A DNA stretch of 24,000 nucleotides from an uncultured Candidatus Saccharibacteria bacterium (GCA_964536005.1 CAZHXE010000001.1:7067-31066); one strand, 5' to 3'; positions 2,575 to 16,437 are shown, counted from the first letter of the stretch. The notes: generated by a model from the sequence alone, not told the origin. Program-made: numbers and translations.

Positions 2575-5500
2575 CTATTGGAGCGTGACGTCGATCCAAT
2601 AGTTGGTATTGTTGAACGATGAGGTTGGGAATCCTCCACCGTAGCGGTAGACGCCGCCAGAAACGAGCGTCGAAAGCGGACCGTTGGCGATTGGGTTGGC
2701 CAGTCCAGCGCTCGTGAAGCTGTACAAGCCCGTTGGTGAACGGTACGAGGCTGTATATGTGGCTCCCGCTGTGATGTTTATAGGACTCGCGAACGTGGCG
2801 GTCTGCCAGCCACTGGCTGTTTCGTTGGCTGTTGTGGCTGTGCCAAGGGCAACACCGTTACTATCCCAGAGGGTCATTGTGTGCGACGTTAAACCATCAC
2901 TGGCACCACGGTAGTAGTGAATTTGGCTGATTGCGCCATTTTGGCTACTGGTGAACTTTATGCCTAGCTCAACATCGGCATCGGTGATGGTCGAGACTGT
3001 CTGCGGACTTGGTGCCCAGAAAGAGTATGTCGTCACACCAGCCGTGAATTGGCTGGTGTATGGAATGGCAAGTGCTACTCCGTTGGCATCTGTCACGGAT
3101 GTTGCAATTGACACAGAGTAGGTTTTGTTTGGAGTCAAAGCGCTACTAGGATCTATGACTATTGTATTGTTAGCTGGCGCGTAGCTAATGGTGGCTGCAA
3201 CCGGTGTTTGACCATCGAGCAGCTGAACATTGGCATTGTTGGCTGTGGCCGAATCCAGCGGTTCACTAAAGCTCACTTCAACATTCGTTTGTACATTCAC
3301 GCCCGTAGCATTATTTGTTGGGCTGGCACTGGTGACAATTGGCGCTGTAGTGTCTTGACCATAACTGGCAGTATATGTGCCGCTGGTAGTAGTGAACACT
3401 GCGTAGGACACGCCTTTAATTGTCTCGGTCGTAAAGCTAACGTTCTGGCCATCTTTTGCAAGGCTTAATAGCACACCGTTTTTACTAGAAAGTGGCATGA
3501 GGCCACGCATCATTGATCGGGCTTTCGCGTCGACCGTAGCGCTGAAGCTAAACTCTGAGCCATTCCATGACGAGTTTGTAAAGTATGAATTGTTGCGAGC
3601 ATCTGTCCAGTCGAGCATTTGTTGGCCAGAAACAAGCGGTACTCCCCTCGCCTTTGCCGATGCGACCAGCTGGCGGTCGAACTGGTCGGAGTAATCGTAG
3701 TGCGTACCAAACGCGCCGTAGTAGCCTTCACTGCCCAAAGCCCGATCGAGCAGTACGTTAATGTTTTGCGGGAAGGTCTGCCCGCTCTCATTAACGAGGT
3801 GTGAAGGCAACTGATAGGTGTCGATGAGCTTTCCGTCGAGATCGGCATAGCGCATATTCATACCCGACCCGGTCATAAAGCCCGGTCGGTTTTGCACCCA
3901 ACTGCCTGGCCAGTAGTAGTAATTGAGATCCTGCCTGAGGCCAACAGCCGCGCCAATCTTAGCCCCCTCTGCGTAGGTGCTCCAGGCGATACAATGAATT
4001 CGGTTTACGTGCTGTGCTGGCAAGCTGGTGTATTTGGCTTGGAAGTCGGCCAGCTCGCTTGCGTATGCATTGGCGAGTGATGTTGGCGTCCAATCGTTGC
4101 AGCCTGTGCTCGCATGTACGCCGAAGTCAAAGCCTTGGTTGTAGTATCCTAATGCCTGAGTGTCGGCTACAGGCGTGCTGGTGTAAATGAGAGAGGTTGA
4201 GCGAATACACTCCCAATCCTCTACAACGCAGCCTGGAGTGCTCTCGGCCAGTTGGTGATTGAGCGCGCTAACTGTACCAGTGGCGGTAGCATGGTCGTCG
4301 GCTACCATGACAACGACCGCCTTTTTGTTGTACGGGAAGTACGCGAGTTTTGGTAGCGGCTTGCTATCCTCGTTTACATCGGCGATGATGTTAGCCAGCA
4401 GGCGCTGCTGCTCATCGGCTTGTGGGATCATTACCTTATTGAGGTTAACGTAATCTGGTTGCACGTCGCCCACTTTAGCACCGTAGAACAAGTCATTCGG
4501 TCGGATTGGCGCGCTGCCGTCGCGCTCGTCGCCTGACCAAGCGGGATTACCCTGGTGTGTGTAAACAATCGATTTCGCTAAGTCGTAAGTAAAGGCTGCA
4601 GCTTGTCCACCGTTGACTCCAACGGAGCGGATTGTGACAGCTGGATTATTTGTAGTGGCTGTGGAGCTGCTGAATAGCGTGGCAACCGTCTGGGTGCCGA
4701 TCTGGGCTGTGTAGTTGTCGGCGCTGCCATGATATTGCATGGTCTCGCCCACTATGCCACTGCCGGGACTTTGACTGGTATTTACTTGCATGTAAGCGTC
4801 GCTCATGACGGATGCTTGGTCGGTTAGACCCAGCAAGTTTGCAAGTTTTTTGTCTGGGTGCATAGCAATGAGGTTGCCACCGTTGTTGACGTAATTGGTA
4901 AGTGTCGTCACTTGATTGTCGCTGAGCGCCATATCGCCGAGTAAAACGACATCGTATTGGCCAAGCAGCACGCTGTTGACGTCGGCAAGCTCAACGGTCT
5001 TGAATGAGTTGAGGCCCTCGGCGCGTAGAATTTCGCTGTAATATGCGCTAAACGGATTATCGTTGTCGGTAACGATCAAGATTGGTCCATCGTGGCCTTG
5101 CGAGAGTGGGTCTATCTCTGTTGCAGGGCCAGTCACAGTTGTAAAGTTCCAGCTGTAAGCGCTTGCCAGTGAGTTGCCCGCGATGTCTTTGACGCCCGTG
5201 CTGAGGCTTGCCTGGTAGCTCGTACCGGCATCCAGGGCGGCTTGTGGCACAATATTTATCGCGTTTGTACTGGTGTTGTAGCTAATGGACGAGGTTACCA
5301 CTGCCTGGGTCTGGGTATTAGTAAGCGTAACATTGGCGGTAGTTACCGTAGTCTCGTCGATTGGTTCGCTCATGAGCGCGGCGATGGTTGTGTCGGTGGC
5401 TACATTGGTAGCATTATTGCCTGGGATGACTTCGGTTACTGTCGGCTTGGTCGTGTCAGAGGTGTCGGCTACTAGTATATCTACCCAATAGTTAGAGGCA

Positions 5501-6834
5501 TTATAGCTTTGGCTTGGGAATCCACTCGCACCGTATTTATAGACACCGTTGCCACCGGAGACGCCGTTAGCCAGCGCGGATAAAATGCCACTCGTAACGG
5601 TGTTGTTGCTAAAATAGCTTTCGTTTACGGAGTAGCGGCCTTTTGGTGCATGATACGAAACTACGTAGGTTGTGTTGGCGGCAATCGCGACCGGTGATCC
5701 AAAATTTGCCGTCTGCCAGCCACTCGCTGTTTCGTTTGTGAATGTGACTGTTGCTAGCTTGTTGCCTGCGTTATCCCACAGGTTGCCTACGTGCGTACCG
5801 GTATTGGCGGTACCCTTATAAAACTTAAGCCCCACCACACTTGTTGCCTGTGAGCTCCTAAACTTCATACCCAATTCAACAGCGGCAGTGTCACTGTCGC
5901 TGAGTACTGCGGGCGTTGTAGTGTTTGGCCAAACGCTCGAGGTGCTGAGAGCTGTGTTATTGGTTGATATGGCGACTGGTGAGCTCGTTGCTGTGTTGCC
6001 AGCGGCATCTGTGGCCATGGCTGTGATAGTATGAACGCCATTTGGCAGAAGAGAACTATTCCAGGCAACCGAGTACGGGCTGGTTGTATCGGCGGAGCCC
6101 ACGTTATTGCCATCAACTTTAAATTGAACACTGCTAACACCAACGTTATCGCTGGCATTTGCTGCGAGGTTTATGGTGCCGCTCACTGAGGCGTTGTTAG
6201 CTGGACTTGTAACTGACACAGTTGGTGCCGACGTGTCGCTCGAATTGCTCGTTACTACATCTACCCAATAGTTGCTTTGGTTATAGCTTTGATTTGGGAA
6301 AGCAGAGCTTGAGCCGTATTTATAGACACCATTGCCGCCGTCGGTTCCGCTCTGTAAGGCTGTCAATGTGCCATTAGTGCGAGCTGACGCAAAATATCCT
6401 TCGGTGACTGAGTAATGGCCATTTGGCGCATAATAAGAAATTACGTAGGTTGTATCGGCGGCTATACCGATTGGGCTTGCAAAGCTGGCTTCTTGCCAGC
6501 CGCTGGCCGACTCACTGCCAAATGTGACAGTCGCAAGTTTGTTGCCGGCAGCGTCCCAGAGGTTGCCAACGTGTGTGCCGGTGTTAGCAGTACCCTTGTA
6601 AAATCGTAGGCCGGTGACGGTTGTGGCGACAGAACTTCTGAACTTCGTTCCTAGCTCTACTCCGCTAGTGTCGGGGTCGCTCAGAACAGCTGGCGTATCG
6701 GATGGCGCCCAAATGCTAAGTGCTCTAGATGACTTAGGAAATAAGACTGCAAAACTGCCAAATGACAGCAAGGCAGCCAGTGTAAAAATACTTAGCTTCT
6801 TGCTAAGGTGTTTTTTGCGCTGGCGCAATATCAT
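2575..6834 (-). CDS. giant secreted surface protein: 3x DUF4082-like modules, bacterial Ig-like domains, large central alpha/beta region
   Basis: The ORF-track entry 2575..6882 starts at GTG. The internal ATG at 6834 is preceded by AAAGGGG (SD) 6 nt upstream and gives a classic signal peptide, MILRQRKKHLSKKLSIFTLAALLSFGSFAVLFPKSSRA/LS. Three modules carry the signature ..VELG.KF.S...G.....YKG..NTGTH.G.LWD..G..LA..TF..E.ASGWQ...F..P......TYV.SY....G.YS.......NYWVD. They lie at approx. nt 6250-6720, 5475-5937 and 2578-3015 and match my recollection of DUF4082. Segments such as PTVTEVIPGNNATNVATDTTIAALMSEPIDETTVTTANVTL look like SbsA/Big_5-type Ig domains. Confidence 0.9.
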   Translation of the reverse strand: MILRQRKKHLSKKLSIFTLAALLSFGSFAVLFPKSSRALSIWAPSDTPAVLSDPDTSGVELGTKFRSSVATTVTGLRFYKGTANTGTHVGNLWDAAGNKLATVTFGSESASGWQEASFASPIGIAADTTYVISYYAPNGHYSVTEGYFASARTNGTLTALQSGTDGGNGVYKYGSSSAFPNQSYNQSNYWVDVVTSNSSDTSAPTVSVTSPANNASVSGTINLAANASDNVGVSSVQFKVDGNNVGSADTTSPYSVAWNSSLLPNGVHTITAMATDAAGNTATSSPVAISTNNTALSTSSVWPNTTTPAVLSDSDTAAVELGMKFRSSQATSVVGLKFYKGTANTGTHVGNLWDNAGNKLATVTFTNETASGWQTANFGSPVAIAANTTYVVSYHAPKGRYSVNESYFSNNTVTSGILSALANGVSGGNGVYKYGASGFPSQSYNASNYWVDILVADTSDTTKPTVTEVIPGNNATNVATDTTIAALMSEPIDETTVTTANVTLTNTQTQAVVTSSISYNTSTNAINIVPQAALDAGTSYQASLSTGVKDIAGNSLASAYSWNFTTVTGPATEIDPLSQGHDGPILIVTDNDNPFSAYYSEILRAEGLNSFKTVELADVNSVLLGQYDVVLLGDMALSDNQVTTLTNYVNNGGNLIAMHPDKKLANLLGLTDQASVMSDAYMQVNTSQSPGSGIVGETMQYHGSADNYTAQIGTQTVATLFSSSTATTNNPAVTIRSVGVNGGQAAAFTYDLAKSIVYTHQGNPAWSGDERDGSAPIRPNDLFYGAKVGDVQPDYVNLNKVMIPQADEQQRLLANIIADVNEDSKPLPKLAYFPYNKKAVVVMVADDHATATGTVSALNHQLAESTPGCVVEDWECIRSTSLIYTSTPVADTQALGYYNQGFDFGVHASTGCNDWTPTSLANAYASELADFQAKYTSLPAQHVNRIHCIAWSTYAEGAKIGAAVGLRQDLNYYYWPGSWVQNRPGFMTGSGMNMRYADLDGKLIDTYQLPSHLVNESGQTFPQNINVLLDRALGSEGYYGAFGTHYDYSDQFDRQLVASAKARGVPLVSGQQMLDWTDARNNSYFTNSSWNGSEFSFSATVDAKARSMMRGLMPLSSKNGVLLSLAKDGQNVSFTTETIKGVSYAVFTTTSGTYTASYGQDTTAPIVTSASPTNNATGVNVQTNVEVSFSEPLDSATANNANVQLLDGQTPVAATISYAPANNTIVIDPSSALTPNKTYSVSIATSVTDANGVALAIPYTSQFTAGVTTYSFWAPSPQTVSTITDADVELGIKFTSSQNGAISQIHYYRGASDGLTSHTMTLWDSNGVALGTATTANETASGWQTATFASPINITAGATYTASYRSPTGLYSFTSAGLANPIANGPLSTLVSGGVYRYGGGFPTSSFNNTNYWIDVTLQ

Positions 6835-6853
6835 GCTATACCCCTTTATTGTG

Positions 6854-7144
6854 TTACATAAAGTAGTATATATTACAGACACATCTGTTGGAAAGTGCTA
6901 GCGCTATCCCACGAGCATTGTTGAATCCCTTCGCATTGCTATAGCGACAGATGACTTTGTTTTCGTAAACTTCTGGTTCTTGTAGTGTTATCTGGCCTAG
7001 GTCTTTGGTGTCAATGATTTTGTGGGTTTTGTATCTTTTTGTCCATTTGGTGCTAAACCTGCCCTCGGCGCGATCCCTAAAGCGGGCTTCCGGTGTGCGG
7101 TCTTTGTACCATATAGGTCTTCGTCCCTTGGTGTAGTTTGGCAA
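6854..7144 (-). CDS. hypothetical basic 96-aa ORF (doubtful)
   Basis: The ORF starts at TTG and is Lys/Arg-rich (PNYTKGRRPIWYKDRTPEARFRDRAEGRFSTKWTKRYKTHK...). Its 3' end overlaps the leader/promoter region of the giant gene. I see no SD and recognise no family. It fills an otherwise empty 300-bp gap, so it could be a gene remnant. Confidence 0.2.
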   Translation of the reverse strand: MPNYTKGRRPIWYKDRTPEARFRDRAEGRFSTKWTKRYKTHKIIDTKDLGQITLQEPEVYENKVICRYSNAKGFNNARGIALALSNRCVCNIYYFM

Positions 7145-7184
7145 AAGCTAATCGATAAAATTGGCGGTCGGCACGTACTTACGC

Positions 7185-8525
7185 TTACCTCTGCCTAATA
7201 CCAACTGGACCGCCATCAGAGGCGCCAGTTATGCCAGGTGAATTTGCTGCAAGCTTAAAACCTTCCCAAGTGGTTGGGTTTGACCCACCTTCAAACACGG
7301 GCACACCGCTGAAATTTTGTCCACTCACGCCCGAGCGCAACATGTTGTTGCGATTAACTGCGGCAGTAGAGCTGTTTTGCAGACTCACTACGTAGGCAAC
7401 GTTGTCATACACTTGTGTACCAGTACCGACCGGGTCAGACGTCTTTCGGCTGAGTATTATATGACCACAAGGCGCATAGTCGCAGGTGGTGCGGTACACC
7501 AGCGTGTTGTAGCGGACAATTGAATTCGTGTCGGAATAGAGCTCTATCCCCCATCGCCCACTTTGGATGTCTACAACGTTGTTTTCTATGAGTACGTTAT
7601 CCACTCCATCGTATGCAACGATTCCGTCGGCGACATTGTGAATATAGTTACCTCGTACGATTGAACCAGTCGCGCCGATGAGCTGGATTGGATCGGAGTG
7701 TGGAGAGGTATCCCACCACCCCGTGCAAACCGCGCCATGCTCCGCGATATCATCGAATTCGTTATTGATAATGTTGACACCCACACCTGACTGAATACCG
7801 TCCTTATGTCCACCTTTGAAAAGAGAGTTCCTAACGGTTACGCCGGAGTGTGTTGCTTGAGAATATGGAAAATGTATGGCGCCAGCTGGCACGTCTGCAC
7901 AGGCGTAGGTGCCAGATCCTGAACTTGGGAAGTTAATATTGATGTGAGTGTTGCTATCAAGCAAAATATTGGAATTTGTGACCCCATCTATGGTGAGCGA
8001 AGTGGTGAAAGCAGTGTTCTTGATGGTTATGTCCTTTGCGCCGTTCAGGATTGTGCCGCCCGCTCCCGACAGCCCATCAAGCGTAAATCCGTTGTCGCCG
8101 GTAGTAAAGTTAAACAACATGGTTGCCGTAGCACCGGCCGCTGCCTTGATGGTTATCGCCTTGTTCGTGCCAGCGAATGTGCCGTAATTGCCACTCGCCA
8201 GACATATGGTCTGACCAACAGTGGCAGCAGTAATCTGCGATGCCAGGGTGGTTGCATTTGAGGCATTCAGATCGCACGTCCCGCCTGTGCTGACGGGGTT
8301 GAATTGTAAAAAGGATGAGCCAGAGGCCGTGCCATCAGACGCAACTGATGTATCGTTGGCACTGACATATGTTTCACCTTCGGCCACCTTTGCATTAGGT
8401 GACGTTGCCGCAAAAGAACGATACAGGATAATTGATCCTACGGCCGCAAACGCAACGGCAAAAAGAAGTGGCAGACCGCTGTTTGGCCGCTGGAAATTTA
8501 GAGATTTAGAGAAAAGCTTTTTCAT
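7185..8525 (-). CDS. secreted right-handed parallel beta-helix (pectate-lyase-fold) protein
   Basis: It has an ATG start and an N-terminal signal anchor (LPLLFAVAFAAVGSIILYRSFAA), then the shared PNAK..ASGSSFLQF module. Repeated beta-helix rungs follow: ITIKNTAF, ILLDSNTHI, VTVRNSLF, VNIINNEFDDI, IVRGNYIHNVADGI, VLIENNVVDI, IVRYNTLVY (PbH1-like repeats). Confidence 0.85.
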   Translation of the reverse strand: MKKLFSKSLNFQRPNSGLPLLFAVAFAAVGSIILYRSFAATSPNAKVAEGETYVSANDTSVASDGTASGSSFLQFNPVSTGGTCDLNASNATTLASQITAATVGQTICLASGNYGTFAGTNKAITIKAAAGATATMLFNFTTGDNGFTLDGLSGAGGTILNGAKDITIKNTAFTTSLTIDGVTNSNILLDSNTHININFPSSGSGTYACADVPAGAIHFPYSQATHSGVTVRNSLFKGGHKDGIQSGVGVNIINNEFDDIAEHGAVCTGWWDTSPHSDPIQLIGATGSIVRGNYIHNVADGIVAYDGVDNVLIENNVVDIQSGRWGIELYSDTNSIVRYNTLVYRTTCDYAPCGHIILSRKTSDPVGTGTQVYDNVAYVVSLQNSSTAAVNRNNMLRSGVSGQNFSGVPVFEGGSNPTTWEGFKLAANSPGITGASDGGPVGIRQR

Positions 8526-8703
8526 GTTCTTTTCTATTTATTACTGTAGACAATAGTAACAGTATAAGCGTAATTGATTTGAAATTAAACGAGCCTTGTT
8601 CCTGTTGTGCTTGCTCATGCATACATCATATCCCAAAGGTACTGCACTTCCTGAAATTGCTCCTGGACTCTTAGCATGACGGATACGCTTAATGCTATTT
8701 GCT

Positions 8704-8732
8704 GTATATAGTTTATAATGTAAACTATATAC
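8704..8732 (+). promoter_or_regulatory. perfect 12-bp inverted repeat (candidate MarR operator) overlapping a TATAAT -10 box
   Basis: GTATATAGTTTA (8704-8715), spacer TAATG, TAAACTATATAC (8721-8732). The right arm ends one base before the MarR ATG at 8733. A consensus TATAAT lies at 8714-8719, only 14 nt from the ATG, and there is no SD in between. Confidence 0.6.
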
Positions 8733-9185
8733 ATGAAACCAATTTCCGAATTCTCTACATACCGAACAGGAATTCTGCAGGCGAAGGCGTACAGAAATCT
8801 TAAAAACTTTATGTACAGAACACTCAAAAAGCATGATTTAACATCCACGCAGTGGTCTATACTGGGCGTTATTAGCGATGAAACAAAAAATGGTGGAATC
8901 CGTGTCAGTGACCTGGCGGATATGCTTGATGTGAAGCGTTCATTTATAACCAATATGGTAAAAAAACTGATCGAAAATGGATACGCCGAGCATGCTTATG
9001 ACGAAGATGACGGACGAGTAAGGCTTGTGATCGCTACCGACAAAGCGCACCTAAAGGTAGTTGAAATTGAGCGCTACATGCGCAAAGAGATGCGCGAGTG
9101 GCTAAGTGATATCGAGCATCAAGATCTGGTTAGATACATCATGGTTCTGGATAAAATCTCACTTAAAAACAACACTCATAGTTAA
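8733..9185 (+). CDS. MarR-family transcriptional regulator
   Basis: 150 aa. LTSTQWSILGVISDETKNGGIRVSDLADMLDVKRSFITNMVKKLIENGYAEHAYDEDDGRVRLVIATDKA is a typical MarR winged-helix core: an LT..Q..L start, then the recognition helix, then the DxRxxxxxLT-like wing. Confidence 0.9.
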   Translation: MKPISEFSTYRTGILQAKAYRNLKNFMYRTLKKHDLTSTQWSILGVISDETKNGGIRVSDLADMLDVKRSFITNMVKKLIENGYAEHAYDEDDGRVRLVIATDKAHLKVVEIERYMRKEMREWLSDIEHQDLVRYIMVLDKISLKNNTHS

Positions 9186-9263
9186 GCTGGGTTAACCATA
9201 TTTTACTTAACTAAGTTAACTATCTATACTTACTCGTAGTTAGTAAATAACGAGAGGAAGTAT

Positions 9264-9893
9264 ATGACACATTCAGTAATCGGGCTTGCAATCTTAGGAT
9301 TAGTTATCGGAGGCGCTGGCGGCTATGCCATTGGTAGCAGCATGAATGACGACTCCGAGCAGGACACGATGTCGCAACAAAATGAGAATCAGAGCATGTC
9401 ACAGGACAGCGACGGAGTGACCGTAGGTGGCGCCAAAATGGTTCGTTCCCTCGACATTGTAGAGAACGCAGCCAAAGCAAGTAACGTAACTACGGTGGTT
9501 GGTCTGGTCGAGCAAGCTGGGCTTGTCGATACGCTCAAGGGTGTGGGTCCATTTACGGTATTTGGCCCAAACAACGCCGCATTCGAAGCGGTTGACCCAG
9601 ATGTACTGGCTACAGTCGCAGGCGACAACGCGCTACTAAGAACGGTCCTTACCTACCACGTAGTACCAGGTACATACACATCTGCCGACTTGCGTGCACT
9701 CGCAAACAGTGGCGATAGCGTGAAAACTGTACAAGGTACCGAGCTGTCATTCAAGATCGTTGATGGTAACCTTGTTGTCGTAGACAAAGTTGGCCAAGAA
9801 GTAATGATCGAGACTGCCGACGTCATCTCGTCAAATGGCGTAACTCACGTCATCAAGAACGTGCTTCTGCCAGTTGACCCATCGACTCTTTAA
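9264..9893 (+). CDS. fasciclin (FAS1) domain protein, membrane-anchored/secreted
   Basis: SD GAGAGGAAG lies upstream of the ATG, and there is an N-terminal TM segment (VIGLAILGLVIGGAGGYAIG). FAS1 signatures are present: TVFGPNNAAFEAV, LTYHVVPGTYTSADL, SNGVTHVIKNVLLP. Confidence 0.9.
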   Translation: MTHSVIGLAILGLVIGGAGGYAIGSSMNDDSEQDTMSQQNENQSMSQDSDGVTVGGAKMVRSLDIVENAAKASNVTTVVGLVEQAGLVDTLKGVGPFTVFGPNNAAFEAVDPDVLATVAGDNALLRTVLTYHVVPGTYTSADLRALANSGDSVKTVQGTELSFKIVDGNLVVVDKVGQEVMIETADVISSNGVTHVIKNVLLPVDPSTL

Positions 9894-9913
9894 AGAGTAA
9901 AACCGTGAATTGG

Positions 9914-9944
9914 GCTCAGCGCGATGAGTGCTGGGCTCTTTTCT
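9914..9944 (+). terminator. candidate intrinsic terminator after the fasciclin gene
   Basis: GCTCAGC (9914-9920) pairs with GCTGGGC (9930-9936) as a 7-bp stem with one G-U and a 9-nt loop. TCTTTTCT follows at 9937-9944. Confidence 0.45.
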
Positions 9945-9988
9945 AAATAAAACTCATATTAAAACCCACCAAGGGAAAGGACGCGTAA

Positions 9989-11689
9989 ATGCTGTTGTTA
10001 CTCGGAGCGTTCATAGCTGGCATACTCACTGTGCTGGCACCGTGCGTATTGCCTCTGTTACCGATCATCATTGGAGGCTCGGTTTCAGGAGATGAAGCTG
10101 ACAAAAAACGACCACTATATATCACTGCTTCGCTTGCCCTGTCGTTGTTAGTCTTCACCCTACTGCTGAAGGCAACGACAGTGCTCATTGGTGTTCCGCC
10201 AGAGTGGTTTGCGTACATATCCGGCATTATCATCGTAGCCCTTGGCATATTCACGCTCTTCCCTTCTTTATACGCAACATTTTTAGCCAAAGTGGGCATT
10301 GAGTCTAAAGCCCTTAGCTTCTTAAGCAAAGGTCAGAAACAATCTAACCCAATGTTTGGCGCCATACTTACTGGTGCGGCCCTCGGACCGGTTTTTTCAA
10401 GCTGCAGCCCAGTCTATGGCTACATACTCGCCACTGTTTTACCGGTGAATTTCTCGCTGGCCATGCTGTACATGAGCGCCTACATCTTAGGACTGAGTTT
10501 TGTGTTGCTCCTGATTGGCTATTTCGGGCAGCGCTTTATTAAAAAAATCAGTTGGATGAGTAACCCTAAGGGTGCGTTTCAGCGTCTTATTGCTGTTTTG
10601 TTTATTATTGTTGGTCTGATGGTCTTCACTGGGCTTGATAAGGACTTTCAGGCCTTTATCTCGCGCAACACGCCGTTTAATATCGATGCGCTGAGCGCCA
10701 AATTAATTCCAGCCAGCCAAAGAGAGTACAAAGACGGCGAACTCCTTAACGTAGACCCCTACCCTGCCCCAGAATTTGCTGGGCTCGAGGATTGGATTAA
10801 CAGTGAACCTCTGACACTAGAGAGTTTGCGGGGACAAGTTGTACTGGTCGACTTTTGGACCTACAGTTGCATTAACTGCGTGCGCAATAACCCGTATATT
10901 GAAGGTTGGTATCAGCAATATAAGGACGACGGCTTTACGGTCATCGGTGCGCACGCGCCGGAGTTTGCGTTTGAGCGTAACGTTGAAAATGTCCAAAAGG
11001 CCGTGAGGGATCAAAACATAAGCTACCCGGTTGCGCTCGATAACGACTTCAGCACATGGGGCGCGTTTGAAAACCAGTTTTGGCCAACCTACTACCTAAT
11101 CGACGCCCAAGGAAACGTGCGACGAATCCATAGCGGCGAGGGCGAATATCGAGAGTCCGAGCAAGCTATTCGACAACTTTTGACCGAGAACGGCGCGTTC
11201 TTGTCGGACGACGAGATTACAACTGAAGGAGACGCCGTTGACTACATTACTAAGCAGCAAACACCCGAGACGTATCTTGGCCTAAAGCGAGCCAGCAACT
11301 TTGCAAGCAAGGAACCACTTGGCAGCGGCGGCCCATTTACGTCACCGGCGAAGCTTGCTTCAAACCAATGGAGCCTAAGCGGCAAATGGGACGTGGGTAA
11401 TGAAACGATCACATCGTCAGAAGACTCGGCCAAGCTTGCATTTAATATTCGTGCCAAAGCGGTGTATGTGGTCGCGTCTTCAGAGTCTGGCAATCAGATA
11501 AAAGTTTTGGTTAATGGCCAGCCAGCGAATGGCAGCAACGCAGGCAGCGACGTCAAAAATGGCGCCGTAACGGTGCAGGAAGCAAGGCTGTATCGGCTGG
11601 TTGAGTTTGACCAATTTCAGGAGTCAATTAATTTGGAGCTAACCGTCCCTAAGGGCGTTTCGCTTAATGTATTTACGTTTGGAAGTTAA
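9989..11689 (+). CDS. dipZ: DipZ-like fusion: CcdA/DsbD-type thiol-disulfide transporter + thioredoxin-like domain + C-terminal beta-rich domain
   Basis: The N-terminal polytopic part has the two conserved membrane Cys (LTVLAPCVLPLLP and GPVFSSCSPVYGY). The thioredoxin-like part contains VVLVDFWTYSCINCVRNNPYI (CxxC) and ...FWPTYYLIDAQGNVR. A ~150-aa C-terminal extension follows. This three-part architecture matches mycobacterial DipZ as I recall it. Confidence 0.85.
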   Translation: MLLLLGAFIAGILTVLAPCVLPLLPIIIGGSVSGDEADKKRPLYITASLALSLLVFTLLLKATTVLIGVPPEWFAYISGIIIVALGIFTLFPSLYATFLAKVGIESKALSFLSKGQKQSNPMFGAILTGAALGPVFSSCSPVYGYILATVLPVNFSLAMLYMSAYILGLSFVLLLIGYFGQRFIKKISWMSNPKGAFQRLIAVLFIIVGLMVFTGLDKDFQAFISRNTPFNIDALSAKLIPASQREYKDGELLNVDPYPAPEFAGLEDWINSEPLTLESLRGQVVLVDFWTYSCINCVRNNPYIEGWYQQYKDDGFTVIGAHAPEFAFERNVENVQKAVRDQNISYPVALDNDFSTWGAFENQFWPTYYLIDAQGNVRRIHSGEGEYRESEQAIRQLLTENGAFLSDDEITTEGDAVDYITKQQTPETYLGLKRASNFASKEPLGSGGPFTSPAKLASNQWSLSGKWDVGNETITSSEDSAKLAFNIRAKAVYVVASSESGNQIKVLVNGQPANGSNAGSDVKNGAVTVQEARLYRLVEFDQFQESINLELTVPKGVSLNVFTFGS

Positions 11690-11710: not shown

Positions 11711-11959
11711 ATGGAAGTAACCATGTATTCAACCAAGTTGTGCGCCGCGTGCCATATGCTTACAAAATGGCTGGAAGACAAGTCGGTCGACTACACAAAG
11801 AAGCTGGTAGATGAAGACGAGCAAGCCATGGAAGAGTTCATGTCACTGAATGACGGCGCAATTGGTGTGCCTTTTACGGTCATAACCAACGAAAGTGGAG
11901 TGCATAAAATTACTGGGTTTGATAATGCTAGGTTGGGAGAGTGTTTGGCTTTGGGTTAG
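11711..11959 (+). CDS. glutaredoxin/NrdH-like small redoxin
   Basis: 82 aa with SD AGAGGAA upstream. MYSTKLCAACHMLTKWL carries a CxxC motif at the start of helix 1. ...GVPFTVI... is the cis-Pro region typical of the glutaredoxin fold. Confidence 0.8.
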   Translation: MEVTMYSTKLCAACHMLTKWLEDKSVDYTKKLVDEDEQAMEEFMSLNDGAIGVPFTVITNESGVHKITGFDNARLGECLALG

Positions 11960-12023: not shown

Positions 12024-12272
12024 TTACAATCTCACGCTTGGTAAAATCTTTGACCCGCTCAGTATCGGATTCCTCAAGCTCTGGCGGGTCAGCCGTATTT
12101 TGCCTATTTTGTAACCTCTCGCACGAAGCTTTAGCAGCACGTCGGCGCTAGCGATCACCCAGCATAAAAAGGACGCTTTAAGACGGAAATAATTTAGATC
12201 GTAATTATCATAAAACTCTTTATTTAGTCGGTTCCGTAGCTCTTGGTCATTCGTAGGTTGATTATTGGACAT
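12024..12272 (-). CDS. hypothetical 82-aa protein, tightly linked downstream of the HEPN-motif gene
   Basis: The ATG at 12272 lies 6 nt after the TAA (12279-12281) of the upstream gene, on the same strand. I see no clear SD and recognise no family. It has an acidic/polar N-terminus and a basic C-terminus. Confidence 0.45.
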   Translation of the reverse strand: MSNNQPTNDQELRNRLNKEFYDNYDLNYFRLKASFLCWVIASADVLLKLRARGYKIGKIRLTRQSLRNPILSGSKILPSVRL

Positions 12273-12278
12273 GGTTTG

Positions 12279-13259
12279 TTACTTTTTCTTAGATGCTATT
12301 TTTAGAGTGAATTGTTGGACGTCTTGGCCACGCAGCTCGGGATAGATGCTCATTTGAAATATCCAATTTAAAATAAGAAAACGTGTCAGCTCTCTCAGGT
12401 GCTTAACTAGAGAGTTAAGCGCGTTAACATCATCCTCAAACTCTTTGATGGATCTGCCGAGCTTATATTTATGTAGGCCATCTTTCTTGGGTATGTGCTT
12501 GGCTGTCGGATAAAGGCCATTATGAATACTTCCGTTTCGGATGCGATACTTACAGGCGTCGATGACCGCCTTGTATTGCTTTCTGTTGGTGTCTGACTCA
12601 ATTTGAGAAAATAATTGTTGGTCAAACCATTTGTTGTTATTGATCGAACTATGTTTTAAGCCTTGCCTTCCACAATCATTACAGCTTACGAAGTTTGCGC
12701 ATTCAGGCGGCGCGCCTAATAGGGTCTCGATGATCGTAAAGTAGACAACAACCTGCCAGTAGCTCACATCTATATTCCTCAAAGAGAACGGTTTCAGGCT
12801 GCCTGCCACAAAATAATTAATTATCGACGTGTAGACCCTTACGTCTACTTTTAAAAATAGCTTGTATAGCTCCTCATAACTGATGGAGTTTTGGGTCAGA
12901 GCATCAAATACCTCGTCTAACACCTTTTCCTGGTCAAGGTATCTGTCATGGGCGACATGTTCACGTTGAACCTTTGCAAGCTCAGGGTTAAGCACATACG
13001 CCTGAGGGTTAGCATAGTAATCTACAAGCTCTACAGAATCAGTAAGCAAAGCATGAAAGTATAGCCATTTTTCATATTCATCGTTGTCCTTAATATCCAC
13101 TGCACGTATTGTTCTGCCAAAGTGCATACTGCCATCTTTTTCGACTTTTACATCAGGCCCGGGAGTCAACGAAAAGTACGGCAGATCTATGCGATTTTTC
13201 GGGGGGAGCCAGGTAGGGATAAAAAACTTACTACTTTTTGTCGATTCGTCATCGTTCAT
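12279..13259 (-). CDS. hypothetical protein with HEPN-like Rx4H motif (candidate Abi-type RNase)
   Basis: 326 aa with SD GAGG 7 nt upstream of the ATG. R241-N-G-S-I-H246 (nt 12522-12539, CGA AAC GGA AGT ATT CAT on the minus strand) fits the HEPN Rx4-6H signature with the common polar residue after Arg. It is embedded in KYRIRNGSIHNGLYP and preceded by a helical YFTIIETLLG segment and a CNDC pair. I recognise no other family. Confidence 0.75.
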   Translation of the reverse strand: MNDDESTKSSKFFIPTWLPPKNRIDLPYFSLTPGPDVKVEKDGSMHFGRTIRAVDIKDNDEYEKWLYFHALLTDSVELVDYYANPQAYVLNPELAKVQREHVAHDRYLDQEKVLDEVFDALTQNSISYEELYKLFLKVDVRVYTSIINYFVAGSLKPFSLRNIDVSYWQVVVYFTIIETLLGAPPECANFVSCNDCGRQGLKHSSINNNKWFDQQLFSQIESDTNRKQYKAVIDACKYRIRNGSIHNGLYPTAKHIPKKDGLHKYKLGRSIKEFEDDVNALNSLVKHLRELTRFLILNWIFQMSIYPELRGQDVQQFTLKIASKKK

Positions 13260-13441
13260 ACTGAATACCTCGAAGTTTCATTTAAGGTGATGTTATATAA
13301 CAGTTTAGACCAGTCAAACAACAATGTGCTACTTCATGAAATATCGGGAGCTGTGCACTCTATTGTTGGCTGCAATAGGGCTTCAATTTGCTCAGAATAA
13401 CCAAGTAAAGACATCATCACAACAATGGCACATATGCTTGT

Positions 13442-13580
13442 TGATACCAAGGAGAAAGCGGCTTCGCCTTCTCCGCTTCGCTCCATCGAACTCCCTTGAC
13501 GGAGTTCGATGCTCATCGACATGCACCACGAAGAAAGCCTACCATGTGGTGAGCTATTATCGTTGTGAAATACCATGTAT
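13442..13580 (+). repeat. structured direct repeat, copy A (more degenerate copy)
   Basis: It aligns by hand with 15523-15662, with 12 mismatches over the first 126 positions. There are identical blocks of 36 nt (13447-13482) and 28 nt. Hairpins: 13451-13474 (GGAGAA-A-GCG GCTT CGC-C-TTCTCC), 13487-13508 (CGAACTCC cttgac GGAGTTCG) and 13524-13567 (long hairpin with two mismatches relative to copy B). It lies in the 437-bp gap between the SEFIR gene stop and the HEPN-motif gene start. Confidence 0.85.
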
Positions 13581-13696: not shown

Positions 13697-15220
13697 TTAA
13701 GGTAGTTCAGCGATACGATCTGGCAACATCTTTGTAAATAAAGGAACGTTGAAGTTCCAACCAGCATTGTAGTTAATTTTTGATGTTACTTCGACTGCGG
13801 CTTCATACGCTTTTTGTAATTCGCCCACAGACTTCATGCCAAACATAGCTGAAATCTCGTCTGCACGTGATTTTGATATAAGCTCACCTAGTGGGTCAAT
13901 CAATTCCTCACTTCTATGGCTGTATACGGACAAGCGCGGGAACCACCAGTTATACCTGTTGTCGGGAAAATTGAACCTAGTCAGTAGGTACAGCAAACTG
14001 TCAGCATTGCGTAATTCGTCAAAGTCTAAGCCATCAAACTTAACTGCGTGCTCTTTTTGTATGTCTGCCGCAACACTGACACGGTTGAGGTTCAGCCTAC
14101 TATTTCTATAGTCATCCAGTGTTCGCATGTGCTGGTAGAAATCTGTAAAGGTCACAGCACGTAATTCGCCAAGGTGTGTTTTATAGAAGTAAGTCCTGTT
14201 AATCAGATTATGCACTACGCTGAAACGTCTGTGTTTGACTAACAAAGCCACAATACCCGTTGCAAGCTCGTGAACAACAAAACCGACGTTCTCGTAGTCG
14301 CTGTCACGCCAGGAGTTCACTCCAGGCAGCGGTGCTTGCTTGGCTTTAGCTGAGGTTAATAGTTTATCTATTTCTTCGGTCAATTTTTTATCATCGAGCT
14401 GACCATTCATAAGTAGCCCATCCAGTTCGTTAAGCATTGCGTTGGTGTATGGCTGCATAGATTCAATGCTCTCTAGTACTTTTTCGTCCACAGGTGTGTC
14501 GCCAGCTCCAACTTTCCTCAGCTTATCGAGTGCTTGAAGAAATGTTGCAGTAACTGCCTGGAGTCCAGAACGTGGTTTCTCTGCGTCAACCTGCTGCTCG
14601 GCTGTCTTTGGCAGCTTTTCGGCTGGATGCTTAGCTGTGCCTGTGAATGTTGGGATAGATCCAAGTACTGGCTTTACATACTTTGGCTGATTGTAGATGT
14701 GCCTAATAAGGTCATCGAAGTTTGCGTCAAACTGCGATTCGTCTGTGAAGTCGATGTAATGCCGTGATTTCATATACGTTGGTAAGCACGGTTTACCGTC
14801 CTGATTACGCTCAAATACTAGAGGAACTACTTTTGTCTGGTCAATCTTTTCATACACCTCAGGGCTAATCAGCTGCGTCTCCGTGCCTACGCCACCTCTT
14901 CGAGCATCTGCTTTTTCGGCATACTTTTTGTCCGCTATGACGAGTACGTGAGTGACGGCTTTGTCTGTCACTGATTGCTCCATAAATTTGTTCAGTTCGT
15001 GTCCTGGCTTGTTGTCGTAGATGTCAAGAATTACATCAATACCCTTGCCAAGCAATCTATCAGCAAACAACCTAACTCGCTCCTTGTGTTCTGGGTCGGA
15101 CCAGGCGTAAGACAAGAATGCCTTAGGGTGCTCGGTGCTACCCTGTGCGATTGACTTTAGCGCACCATCATCTGGTTTTAGTTTCTTATCATCATCTGTC
15201 TTATTAGGTTTGTTAGCCAT
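13697..15220 (-). CDS. SEFIR/TIR-like domain protein with uncharacterised ~320-aa C-terminal domain (candidate anti-phage NADase-type effector)
   Basis: 507 aa. Residues ~33-175 read AFLSYAWSDPEHKERVRLFADRLLGKGIDVILDIYDNKPGHELNKFMEQSVTDKAVTHVLVIADKKYAEKADARRGGVGTETQLI...VVPLVFERN...HYIDFTD. This matches my recollection of the bacterial SEFIR/TIR (flavodoxin-like) signature: F.SY.W, GIDV.LD, FMEQS, GGVG.E. The C-terminal part is helical-looking and carries no motif I recognise. Confidence 0.8.
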   Translation of the reverse strand: MANKPNKTDDDKKLKPDDGALKSIAQGSTEHPKAFLSYAWSDPEHKERVRLFADRLLGKGIDVILDIYDNKPGHELNKFMEQSVTDKAVTHVLVIADKKYAEKADARRGGVGTETQLISPEVYEKIDQTKVVPLVFERNQDGKPCLPTYMKSRHYIDFTDESQFDANFDDLIRHIYNQPKYVKPVLGSIPTFTGTAKHPAEKLPKTAEQQVDAEKPRSGLQAVTATFLQALDKLRKVGAGDTPVDEKVLESIESMQPYTNAMLNELDGLLMNGQLDDKKLTEEIDKLLTSAKAKQAPLPGVNSWRDSDYENVGFVVHELATGIVALLVKHRRFSVVHNLINRTYFYKTHLGELRAVTFTDFYQHMRTLDDYRNSRLNLNRVSVAADIQKEHAVKFDGLDFDELRNADSLLYLLTRFNFPDNRYNWWFPRLSVYSHRSEELIDPLGELISKSRADEISAMFGMKSVGELQKAYEAAVEVTSKINYNAGWNFNVPLFTKMLPDRIAELP

Positions 15221-15255: not shown

Positions 15256-15522
15256 GCATTAGCGTGATAATCTTGTAGAGTCCTTTCAGAGACTATAAGT
15301 TTGATGCACTACCATGAGGCATTATTTCAATGCTGATATGGCTAATGGATTCATAGTCATAATAAGATTAAAACATTAACTGGTTAGAGTAGTAAATATT
15401 TCATGCTCTATTATGAATCATATATATTCAGAGCCGCCAATATCAAGTTACAGCCCAAGTAAAGATTGATCATGGATTTGACGGTCTGCTGAACAACTGC
15501 TCCAAATTTCGATTTTCACTGG

Positions 15523-15662
15523 TGATTCCAAGGAGAAAGCGGCTTCGCCTTCTCCGCTTCGCTACGCCGAACTCCCTTGACGGAGTTCGATGCTCGTCGA
15601 CAAGCACCACGAAAAAAGCCCACCGTTTGGTGAGCTATTTTCGTGGTGAGCCCACGGGGTAT
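15523..15662 (+). repeat. structured direct repeat, copy B (better-paired copy), directly upstream of the HKD nuclease gene
   Basis: Same element as 13442-13580. Hairpins: 15532-15555, 15568-15589 (8-bp stem) and 15605-15648. The last is CACCACGAAAA AAGCcCACC gttt GGTGaGCT A TTTTCGTGGTG, with an 11-bp outer stem plus an inner stem. It ends ~70 nt before the probable nuclease start at 15731. Confidence 0.85.
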
Positions 15663-15712: not shown

Positions 15713-16237
15713 ATGAGCTGGAGGTCTTTGATGAAGTTATTTAGGAGCCATAGGAGCACGCGTATTGCTGATGATTTACTTAGATCTACTCTATTTGATG
15801 AGGAAAGTTTCTTCAAGATTATGAGTAGTGACATTAAGTCAGCACAAAAAGAAATTATAATTGAAAGTCCATTCGTAACCATACGTAGAGCATCTGAAAT
15901 TAGTAAGCTCTTTGAAAGGCTGCATGAAAAAGGCGTTAGTGTAATCGTGCACACTCGCAATCCCGAACACCACGATGGAAACCTAAAATTCCAATCTGTA
16001 CGAGGGATCGCTATTCTCCGTGAGTCTGGAGCAAAAGTAAAGATTCATGATGATATGCGACATCGTAAAATATGCATAGTAGACCGGCGTATTCTGTGGG
16101 AAGGAAGTTTAAACATGCTTTCACACAGCAGCAGTAAGGAAATAATGAGAAGAACCGAGTCCGAAGTATTATCCAAGCAGATGTTAAGATTTGCGAAACT
16201 CCACAAAAGTTTGAATGGTATACTACAGATATTATGA
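15713..16237 (+). CDS. single-HKD phospholipase-D-superfamily nuclease (Nuc-like)
   Basis: H117-R-K-ICIV-D-RRILWE-G-S-L-N134 (nt 16061-16114) is a perfect HxK(x)4D(x)6GSxN motif. The ~170-aa size and single motif are as in the homodimeric Nuc/BfiI-type nucleases. The likely true start is the second ATG at 15731 (MKLFRSH...), which has GGAGG (15720-15724) 6 nt upstream. Confidence 0.88.
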   Translation: MSWRSLMKLFRSHRSTRIADDLLRSTLFDEESFFKIMSSDIKSAQKEIIIESPFVTIRRASEISKLFERLHEKGVSVIVHTRNPEHHDGNLKFQSVRGIAILRESGAKVKIHDDMRHRKICIVDRRILWEGSLNMLSHSSSKEIMRRTESEVLSKQMLRFAKLHKSLNGILQIL

Positions 16238-16437
16238 CTGGCTACAAACCAACAAAAAATGATGTGCAGTTGTTGATTAACTGGCTAAAAGAGCACGATC
16301 CCGAAAACGCCAATGAAGAGGTAGCCAAACAGATGTTGGTTGATCTTAAGCTTAGTTTTCGCGCCATTGGTCTGAGTGATCCCGATTCTCTTGAAGATTT
16401 TTATCAATCTTTTATAGCTAATCGTACAAAAGACTAA
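16234..16437 (+). CDS. hypothetical 67-aa acidic protein, translationally coupled to the HKD nuclease
   Basis: There is an ATGA overlap: the ATG at 16234 overlaps the nuclease TGA at 16235-16237. The sequence MTGYKPTKNDVQLLINWLKEHDPENANEEVAKQMLVDLKLSFRAIGLSDPDSLEDFYQSF is helical-looking and Asp/Glu-rich, with no recognised family. Confidence 0.6.
   Translation: MTGYKPTKNDVQLLINWLKEHDPENANEEVAKQMLVDLKLSFRAIGLSDPDSLEDFYQSFIANRTKD

Follow-up and report, generated by a model that had tools for sequence, protein, structure and literature searches.

A compact protein family with a HEPN-like active-site signature, uncaptured by current libraries, in a variable defence-rich region of Candidatus Saccharibacteria

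HEPN RNases, whose metal-independent cleavage leaves a 2',3'-cyclic phosphate, form the killing module of many immune systems, among them Cas13, Csm6, ApeA, HepT and RnlA, and HEPN effectors are expected in defence islands. Here we analyse a stretch of 24,000 nucleotides (nt) from an uncultured Candidatus Saccharibacteria bacterium (GCA_964536005.1, CAZHXE010000001.1:7067-31066), hereafter the window, which carries the gene of a 326-amino-acid (aa) protein. Members of the HEPN superfamily share an Rx4-6H motif whose arginine is followed by a polar residue (N, D or H), and an acidic residue in helix 2, which often takes the form Ex3[K/R]; the motif closes helix 3, and inserts are frequent between helices 2 and 3 (PMC3710099). 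Some ApeA proteins bind structural Zn2+, and ApeA is found among defence genes (10.64898/2026.01.26.701840). We found that the 326-aa gene is a member of an unannotated family of Candidate Phyla Radiation (CPR) bacteria that current family and defence libraries do not capture. Our preferred reading, to which we give a probability of roughly 0.6, is that it encodes a standalone HEPN-type RNase effector of the abortive-infection type, working by an ApeA-like logic. The gene and the parts of its product that bear on this reading are:

12279..13259 (stop codon included), - strand: the 326-aa gene, HEPN-like family member, from an open reading frame (ORF) scan
12522..12539, - strand: R241-N-G-S-I-H246, predicted HEPN Rx4H active-site motif, invariant in 74/74 homologues
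12726..12728, - strand: E178, conserved acid in helix 166-181 and candidate HEPN helix-2 acid (E in 59 and D in 15 of 74)
12651..12701, - strand: C187-x5-C193-x2-C196-x6-H203, predicted CCCH zinc knuckle between the E178 helix and the catalytic helix, from conservation
12885..13226, - strand: residues ~12-125, N-terminal beta-rich/helical region and candidate sensor/regulatory part, from a structure model with a high predicted local distance difference test score (pLDDT)

The gene ends in a TAA stop codon at 12279-12281, has GAGG upstream of its ATG and shows a dicodon coding score of 0.325, which is within the range of true genes. Its product reads ...YRIRNGSIHNG..., or in a fuller stretch ...CKYRIRNGSIHNGLYPT..., and translation thereby confirmed the RNGSIH motif (R241-H246) that a preliminary description of the window had pointed out. 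The CNDC pair and the YFTIIETLLG helix named in that description are both present as well, the former as C193/C196 and the latter as residues 173-182.

When 1.84 billion representative proteins were scanned exhaustively with HMMER, 111 homologues of the 326-aa protein came up at E<=1e-3, of which 80 reach E<=1e-10 and 12 reach E<=1e-30. The homologues are mostly 300-345 aa long and match end to end, the closest being 44% identical, and the family length is about 310-340 aa. Word-indexed searches with the protein or with a 74-sequence profile recovered essentially just the query and its own alignment members; only the exhaustive scan exposed the family, whose relatives the word-indexed searches had missed. 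Searching PDB by sequence with the protein and with the profile gave nothing. There was no match by tblastn of three family members to 72,556 plasmids or of one member to 50,697 phage records, and a related-locus search with family alignment A4 recovered one metagenome locus and 0 viral contigs. Family members named by their source are all 'hypothetical protein' except three. Two of these are mislabelled YuzD, and the third, P0024 from Candidatus Curtissbacteria (UniRef100_A0A1F5H0D2), bears the UniRef name 'Apea-like HEPN domain-containing protein'; the Pfam HEPN_Apea model matches neither P0024 itself nor the 74 family members aligned below, and PADLOC models likewise match none of them. The three members with a named organism are all from the CPR (Saccharibacteria oral taxon 955, a Parcubacteria-group metagenome-assembled genome and Curtissbacteria).

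By our estimate from amino-acid frequencies, about one protein in three of this length would contain a bare Rx4H string by chance. The motif alone therefore proves nothing, and conservation must be the test. In an alignment of 74 full-length family sequences (A1), which are 17-44% identical to the 326-aa query, R241 and H246 are the sole invariant columns, with a constant spacing of 4, and the motif is thus conserved beyond chance at this level of divergence. Retention of these two residues by homologues had been set beforehand as a test of the HEPN assignment, and it held (R and H each 74/74). The position directly after the arginine is N in 37, H in 33 and D in 2 sequences (72/74 N/H/D). The zinc-knuckle residues C187, C193, C196 and H203 are conserved in 69, 71, 68 and 73 of the 74, and the complete CCCH set is present in 64. 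In the ten remaining members the knuckle is degraded or deleted while R241 and H246 are retained, which suggests that the knuckle is probably structural. In the N-terminal region of the family, W65, F68 and H69 are conserved.

An AlphaFold2 model of the 326-aa protein, built from the 74-sequence alignment, reached a pLDDT of 94.1 and a predicted template-modelling (TM) score of 0.91, and a separate model of residues 124-326 (the domain model) reached a pLDDT of 95.5. The N-terminal part of the model consists of beta strands 12-16, 30-41 and 44-54, helices 59-83, and a strand at 88-91 with short helices. The core follows in the order helix 140-153, helix 166-181 bearing E178, the CCCH loop 187-203, a short helix 208-215, and a long helix 223-247 with R241...H246 at its end; after this come a loop with a hairpin at 261-265, a short helix, a long helix 278-301 and a last strand. 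From the motif to this C-terminal helix the pLDDT is above 95. In this order the helices correspond to HEPN helices 1-4, and the zinc knuckle takes the place of the insert between helices 2 and 3 (compared with PMC3710099). Among 31 weak Foldseek matches of the domain model, HEPN structures hold most of the top target-normalised TM-scores, with human sacsin HEPN (3o10_D) at 0.52 and the HepT toxin 8yuf_B at 0.48; 7ae6 and 7ae2 are also listed (E 4.9-9.4).

Alignments of known HEPN families were built from CPR genomes (8 sequences for DUF4145, 19 for HepT and 5 ApeA-like) and compared with the 326-aa family by hhalign; for Abi_2 (PF07751), no members were found in 21 relatives. The top local alignment with HepT sets IRNgsIH on the HepT RNiLvH motif (P=0.03). 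With the ApeA-like set, three collinear fragments aligned, namely the pre-HEPN region, the E-helix and the RN..H motif (P 0.005-0.08). A positive control of DUF4145 versus HepT gave P=0.0046 and a probability of 7.6%; weak hhalign scores are therefore expected even for true HEPN pairs, and since the control is itself weak, such thin alignments settle HEPN homology neither way. On the invariant motif, its flanking residues and the helix order, we consider it very probable that the 326-aa protein belongs to the HEPN superfamily. In one 595-aa family member (P0018, on a European Nucleotide Archive contig of 340 kb), the family domain occupies residues 275-589 behind an extra helical region of ~270 aa, in which there is a further motif, RNRGYAH (R-x5-H), and whose start is weakly DUF4145-like (hhalign P 0.0024). 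P0018 may be a tandem HEPN-HEPN fusion.

Around the 326-aa gene, the window contains the following further features:

12024..12272, - strand: 82-aa ORF, probably no gene or a strain-specific orphan and not a conserved partner, from an ORF scan
13290..13317, - strand: promoter-like site TTGACT-16-TAACAT, ~30 nt upstream of the 326-aa start; a consensus match only, which is not functional evidence
13439-13568, no strand: repeat copy A, 130 nt long with three hairpins, which separates the transcription units of bSEFIR and the 326-aa gene, from repeat comparison
13697..15220, - strand: bSEFIR gene, an independent single-gene defence system (PADLOC bSEFIR 6.2e-92, end to end)
15713..16437, + strand: phospholipase D (PLD)-like nuclease (174 aa) and 67-aa protein, conserved flank of the variable region (PLDc_2 5.3e-11)

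The layout that the preliminary description gave was correct: the 326-aa gene, the 82-aa ORF and the SEFIR gene all lie on the - strand, repeat copy A lies between the SEFIR and 326-aa genes, and the 82-aa ORF begins 6 nt past the 326-aa stop, with its ATG at 12272. Its suggestion that the 82-aa ORF could be an antitoxin or partner did not survive comparison with relatives. We found no homologue of the ORF, and no self-match, in a 5.8-billion-protein collection that does hold the window's 326-aa protein, and no similarity to it in its own genome or in the nine other family loci compared, so that conservation in relatives stands at 0/9. Its dicodon score of -0.04 falls below 98% of true 82-codon chunks of its own genome and is exceeded by 30% of spurious ORFs, while bSEFIR scores 0.427; this test is not decisive alone, as validated genes of the island also score low (PLD 0.07, XRE 0.13). 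No recognisable ribosome-binding site precedes its ATG. Most likely the ORF is untranslated sequence at the 3' end of the mRNA of the 326-aa gene; at most it would be a strain-specific orphan. We also considered the region downstream of the 326-aa gene as an RNA antitoxin or structured RNA and rejected this, with a fold z of +0.66, no tandem repeats and no Rfam match.

Upstream, the bSEFIR protein matches the Pfam models TIR_2 (1.2e-14) and SEFIR (1.5e-10), and bSEFIR is a single-gene system that defends alone (10.1101/2022.05.11.491447). The gene is bracketed by 130-nt direct repeats, copy A on the side of the 326-aa gene and copy B (15520-15649, 90% identical) on its far side. The repeat folds with a z of -4.5, and each copy, in gene orientation, opens with a terminator-type hairpin. 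In copy B this is a canonical terminator with stem and T-run on the - strand (15636-15617), and copy A has a weaker version. Between bSEFIR and the 326-aa gene is a 437-nt spacer which holds the terminator-type repeat and the promoter-like site. The genome has further partial copies of the repeat; a shorter third copy lies on another contig (G000 contig C52, 1710-1791), which indicates a dispersed intergenic repeat and not just a junction pair. The best reading is that bSEFIR and the 326-aa gene form two transcription units that share a hotspot by chance.

We compared ten loci carrying the family gene, nine of them independent: the window, L009 (G169), L013 (G480), L014 (G547), L015 (G743), L016 (a 136-kb Joint Genome Institute contig), L049 (Curtissbacteria), L063 (G830), L064 (G1034) and L065 (G939). 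By all-against-all BLASTP, the family gene is the sole gene common to all ten, and a SEFIR homologue is found in 0/9 of the loci other than the window. What lies downstream of the family gene changes even between close pairs. L009 and L013, whose family genes share 79% identity, differ in the next gene, which is a serine recombinase in convergent orientation in L009 and a co-directional ORF of 236 aa in L013; L014 and L064, with 53% identity between their family genes, have unrelated ORFs there, 579+416 aa in the first and 428+262 aa in the second. Convergent genes also follow in L015/L065, and an unrelated 156-aa ORF follows in L049. The large co-directional ORFs of L014 (6650-9593) and L064 (10669-12756) begin 11-12 nt after the family gene and may be lineage-specific partners; the 579-aa ORF has a faint CHAT match. 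On the upstream side, the family gene of L063 (8576-10824) is translationally coupled, with a 4-nt gap, to an upstream ORF of 283 aa and a membrane-like ORF of 143 aa. A glutaredoxin-like gene of 82/83 aa lies near the family gene in the window (11711-11959) and in L013 (5509-5760), with 38% identity between the two proteins, and is probably coincidental chromosomal context.

The family is sporadic. We found the gene in 2/401, 4/401 and 7/401 genomes of phylum-, order- and class-level samples, the window's own genome included. L015 (5956-8063) and L065 (9045-11152) share a three-gene block of a 201-aa ORF, the family gene and a 173-aa ORF, whose proteins are 96-98.5% identical, with a serine recombinase alongside that is 70% identical. 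The two genomes are assigned to different taxonomic families, and this near-identity therefore points to recent horizontal transfer of a small element. A search for an empty site by way of the DsbD-thioredoxin neighbour found no synteny beyond that gene.

At several loci the surroundings are rich in defence genes. The window has bSEFIR, L009 has a TIR effector and a Schlafen-like protein, and L016 has a cluster (5220-10375) comprising an AbiJ/Abi_C HEPN protein, a PD-T7-3-like gene, RadC and two XRE regulators, with a pPIWI-associated nuclease-like gene (3.3e-24) directly upstream of the family gene. The PLD-like nuclease and its small neighbour of 66-72 aa recur 2.5-4.5 kb from the family gene in the window, L009 (5031-5739), L016 (10501-11214) and L063 (14409-15122). 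The nuclease has a single HKD motif, is 160-174 aa long and shows 39-59% identity among loci, with 32-41% for the small partner. The defence genes between the pair and the family gene vary from locus to locus, and the pair looks like the fixed flank of a variable hotspot. Components of a type IV secretion system (T4SS), or its coupling protein, occur within a few kb of the family gene in the window, L009, L015 and L063, and no T4SS gene was recognised near it in L013, L014, L049 or L064. L063 reverses the order found in the window, with the T4SS operon on one side of the family gene and the PLD pair on the other. The T4SS of Saccharibacteria is chromosomal, reportedly universal and essential for epibiotic growth, with its cargo unknown (PMC10633639). 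Since it is chromosomal and essential, we moved away from the idea of an integrative conjugative element and read the region as a variable stretch, rich in defence genes, next to the T4SS cluster.

This setting makes a role as an anti-phage or anti-mobile-element effector the most likely one. As we picture it, the 326-aa protein would be a metal-independent HEPN RNase with R241 and H246 as its active site, assisted by N242 and E178. The site would probably be shared between the two subunits of a homodimer, on the pattern of other HEPN proteins, and the structural CCCH zinc knuckle would support the HEPN core. The N-terminal beta/alpha part, packed on the helical core, is the likely regulator or sensor; it would hold the enzyme in check in the absence of a signal associated with infection, and once triggered the enzyme would cleave tRNA or other RNA and arrest the cell. 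The gene itself is an accessory, horizontally moving one that appears to act without the 82-aa ORF and without bSEFIR. What the analysis shows is that the family exists, how it is conserved, a confident model with its order of secondary structure, no conserved neighbour, a sporadic distribution and surroundings with defence genes; the RNase chemistry, dimerisation, trigger and defence role are what we infer.

A number of results weigh against this reading and have to be set beside it. The 326-aa protein has 0 matches to Pfam, NCBIfam, PADLOC and PHROG models, and the 74 family members scanned singly against Pfam, PADLOC and NCBIfam yield no recurrent family and, bar one stray match, none from the HEPN clan; HEPN_Apea (PF18739) likewise finds nothing in five carrier genomes, even with the cut-off relaxed to E<=10. 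In helix 2, E178 is followed by TLL and a glycine at +4, which departs from the Ex3[K/R] pattern. In hhalign, only the CxxC zinc motif aligned with DUF4145, and probabilities against HepT and ApeA were 1-7%. Foldseek gave nothing significant for the whole model against PDB (all E>0.5, with no fold match for the N-terminal part), for the domain model against PDB (HEPN matches at E 4.9-10, with root-mean-square deviations up to 11 Å) or for the domain model against BFVD. The Foldseek comparison of the AlphaFold model suggested in the preliminary description thus returned no significant HEPN match, while the top TM-scores went mostly to HEPN structures. Three of the ten loci have no recognisable defence neighbours. 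The lack of significant profile and fold matches, together with the nearly invariant CCCH site, would also fit a different zinc-binding, mostly helical protein, such as a nucleic-acid-binding regulator or another hydrolase, whose R and H serve some other role and only mimic the HEPN motif. We consider this unlikely, because several HEPN regularities occur together (the Rx4H spacing, N/H/D after the arginine, the motif at a helix end, an acid in an upstream helix and an insert before the catalytic helix), because the zinc site is lost in 10/74 members in which R and H stay constant, because HEPN structures hold most of the top TM-scores, and because the hhalign control shows that weak scores are expected even for true HEPN pairs.

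The remaining alternatives keep an RNase or toxin but give it other company. As far as described cases such as HepT-MntA and RnlA-RnlB go, many HEPN toxins are encoded next to their antitoxins, and the tight same-strand spacing of the 326-aa gene and the 82-aa ORF would suit a two-gene toxin-antitoxin pair of this kind. With an ORF that lacks homologues and a recognisable ribosome-binding site and has a low coding score, and with downstream genes that differ at every locus and no neighbour shared across the ten, we regard such a pair as hardly credible. The three-gene SEFIR, HEPN and small-protein system raised in the preliminary description draws on adjacency and a shared strand in the window; bSEFIR matches a single-gene PADLOC model end to end, defends alone, has its own direct repeats and is set apart by the 437-nt spacer with its terminator-type repeat, and none of the nine other loci has a SEFIR gene, so that we abandon this system as extremely improbable. 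A function tied to the T4SS rather than to phage defence draws on the T4SS genes within a few kb at four loci and on the nature of this chromosomal system, on which epibiotic growth depends and whose cargo is unknown (PMC10633639). The protein might then be an RNase effector exported to the epibiont's host, or a maintenance or exclusion factor of a T4SS-associated mobile region. We judge this quite unlikely, as the gene is in about 1-2% of sampled genomes versus a T4SS reported as universal in Saccharibacteria, as no T4SS gene is recognised nearby in L013, L014, L049 and L064, and as the intervening genes are defence genes and no secretion signal is known. A version in which the gene is not anti-phage at all, but a T4SS-tied RNase that is either delivered into the host bacterium or serves epibionts in competing with one another, would, if true, explain both the repeated T4SS adjacency and the missing antitoxin; we hold it to be very unlikely. 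A standalone, abortive-infection-type HEPN effector remains our preferred reading.

What is new here is a compact (about 320 aa), zinc-knuckle-bearing HEPN-like family that current family and defence-system libraries miss. The immune repertoire of CPR/Patescibacteria, from which all organism-named members come, is poorly charted, and the recurrent variable, defence-rich region by the Saccharibacteria T4SS, flanked by the PLD nuclease and the 67-aa gene, could be mined for further CPR defence genes. Should the protein prove to sense and act on its own, its compactness and the confident model would make it tractable for studies of how a lone HEPN protein is held inactive and then triggered. The possible new HEPN subfamily raised in the preliminary description is supported, in that the protein is very probably HEPN and is captured by no library, as the invariant Rx4H, its flanking residues and its position at a helix end suggest; the fold and profile matches that go with this are weak.

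Among known systems, the family can be set beside its island neighbour and three described HEPN groups. With bSEFIR it would share the state of a single-gene anti-phage effector in the same island, and the two are unrelated in fold and family. The DUF4145-type HEPN proteins (PF13643) likewise join a Cys-rich zinc module to a HEPN domain and occur in CPR genomes, but they carry their zinc ribbon on the N-terminal side of the HEPN domain and have R-x2-GN-x3-H as their motif. HepT (PF01934) has an RN-x3-H motif that aligns with IRNgsIH and an acidic residue in the helix preceding it, and its structures 7ae6, 7ae2 and 8yuf are among the top TM-scores; in contrast to the 326-aa family, which is three times larger and has extra domains and no conserved partner, HepT is about 110-145 aa long and always paired with the MntA nucleotidyltransferase antitoxin. 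The likeness to ApeA is of another kind. Both are one gene with no antitoxin; in both, the Rx4H site of the HEPN domain closes a core helix and is surrounded by insertions, with extra N-terminal parts packed on the domain; and the helix-2 motif of CPR ApeA-like proteins, hhSAxExLhG, resembles IIETLLG of the 326-aa protein. At 326 aa this protein is nonetheless smaller than ApeA (roughly 375-600 aa), and its family of 310-340 aa differs from the N-terminal/Mid/split HEPN architecture of about 450-600 aa; the CPR proteins that do match the HEPN_Apea model have open frames of 377-506 aa. We thus rejected membership in the ApeA family, whose model the 326-aa family does not match and whose three-part architecture and size it does not have. 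ApeA, for its part, has a tRNA target, an oligomeric ring and a dinucleotide trigger.

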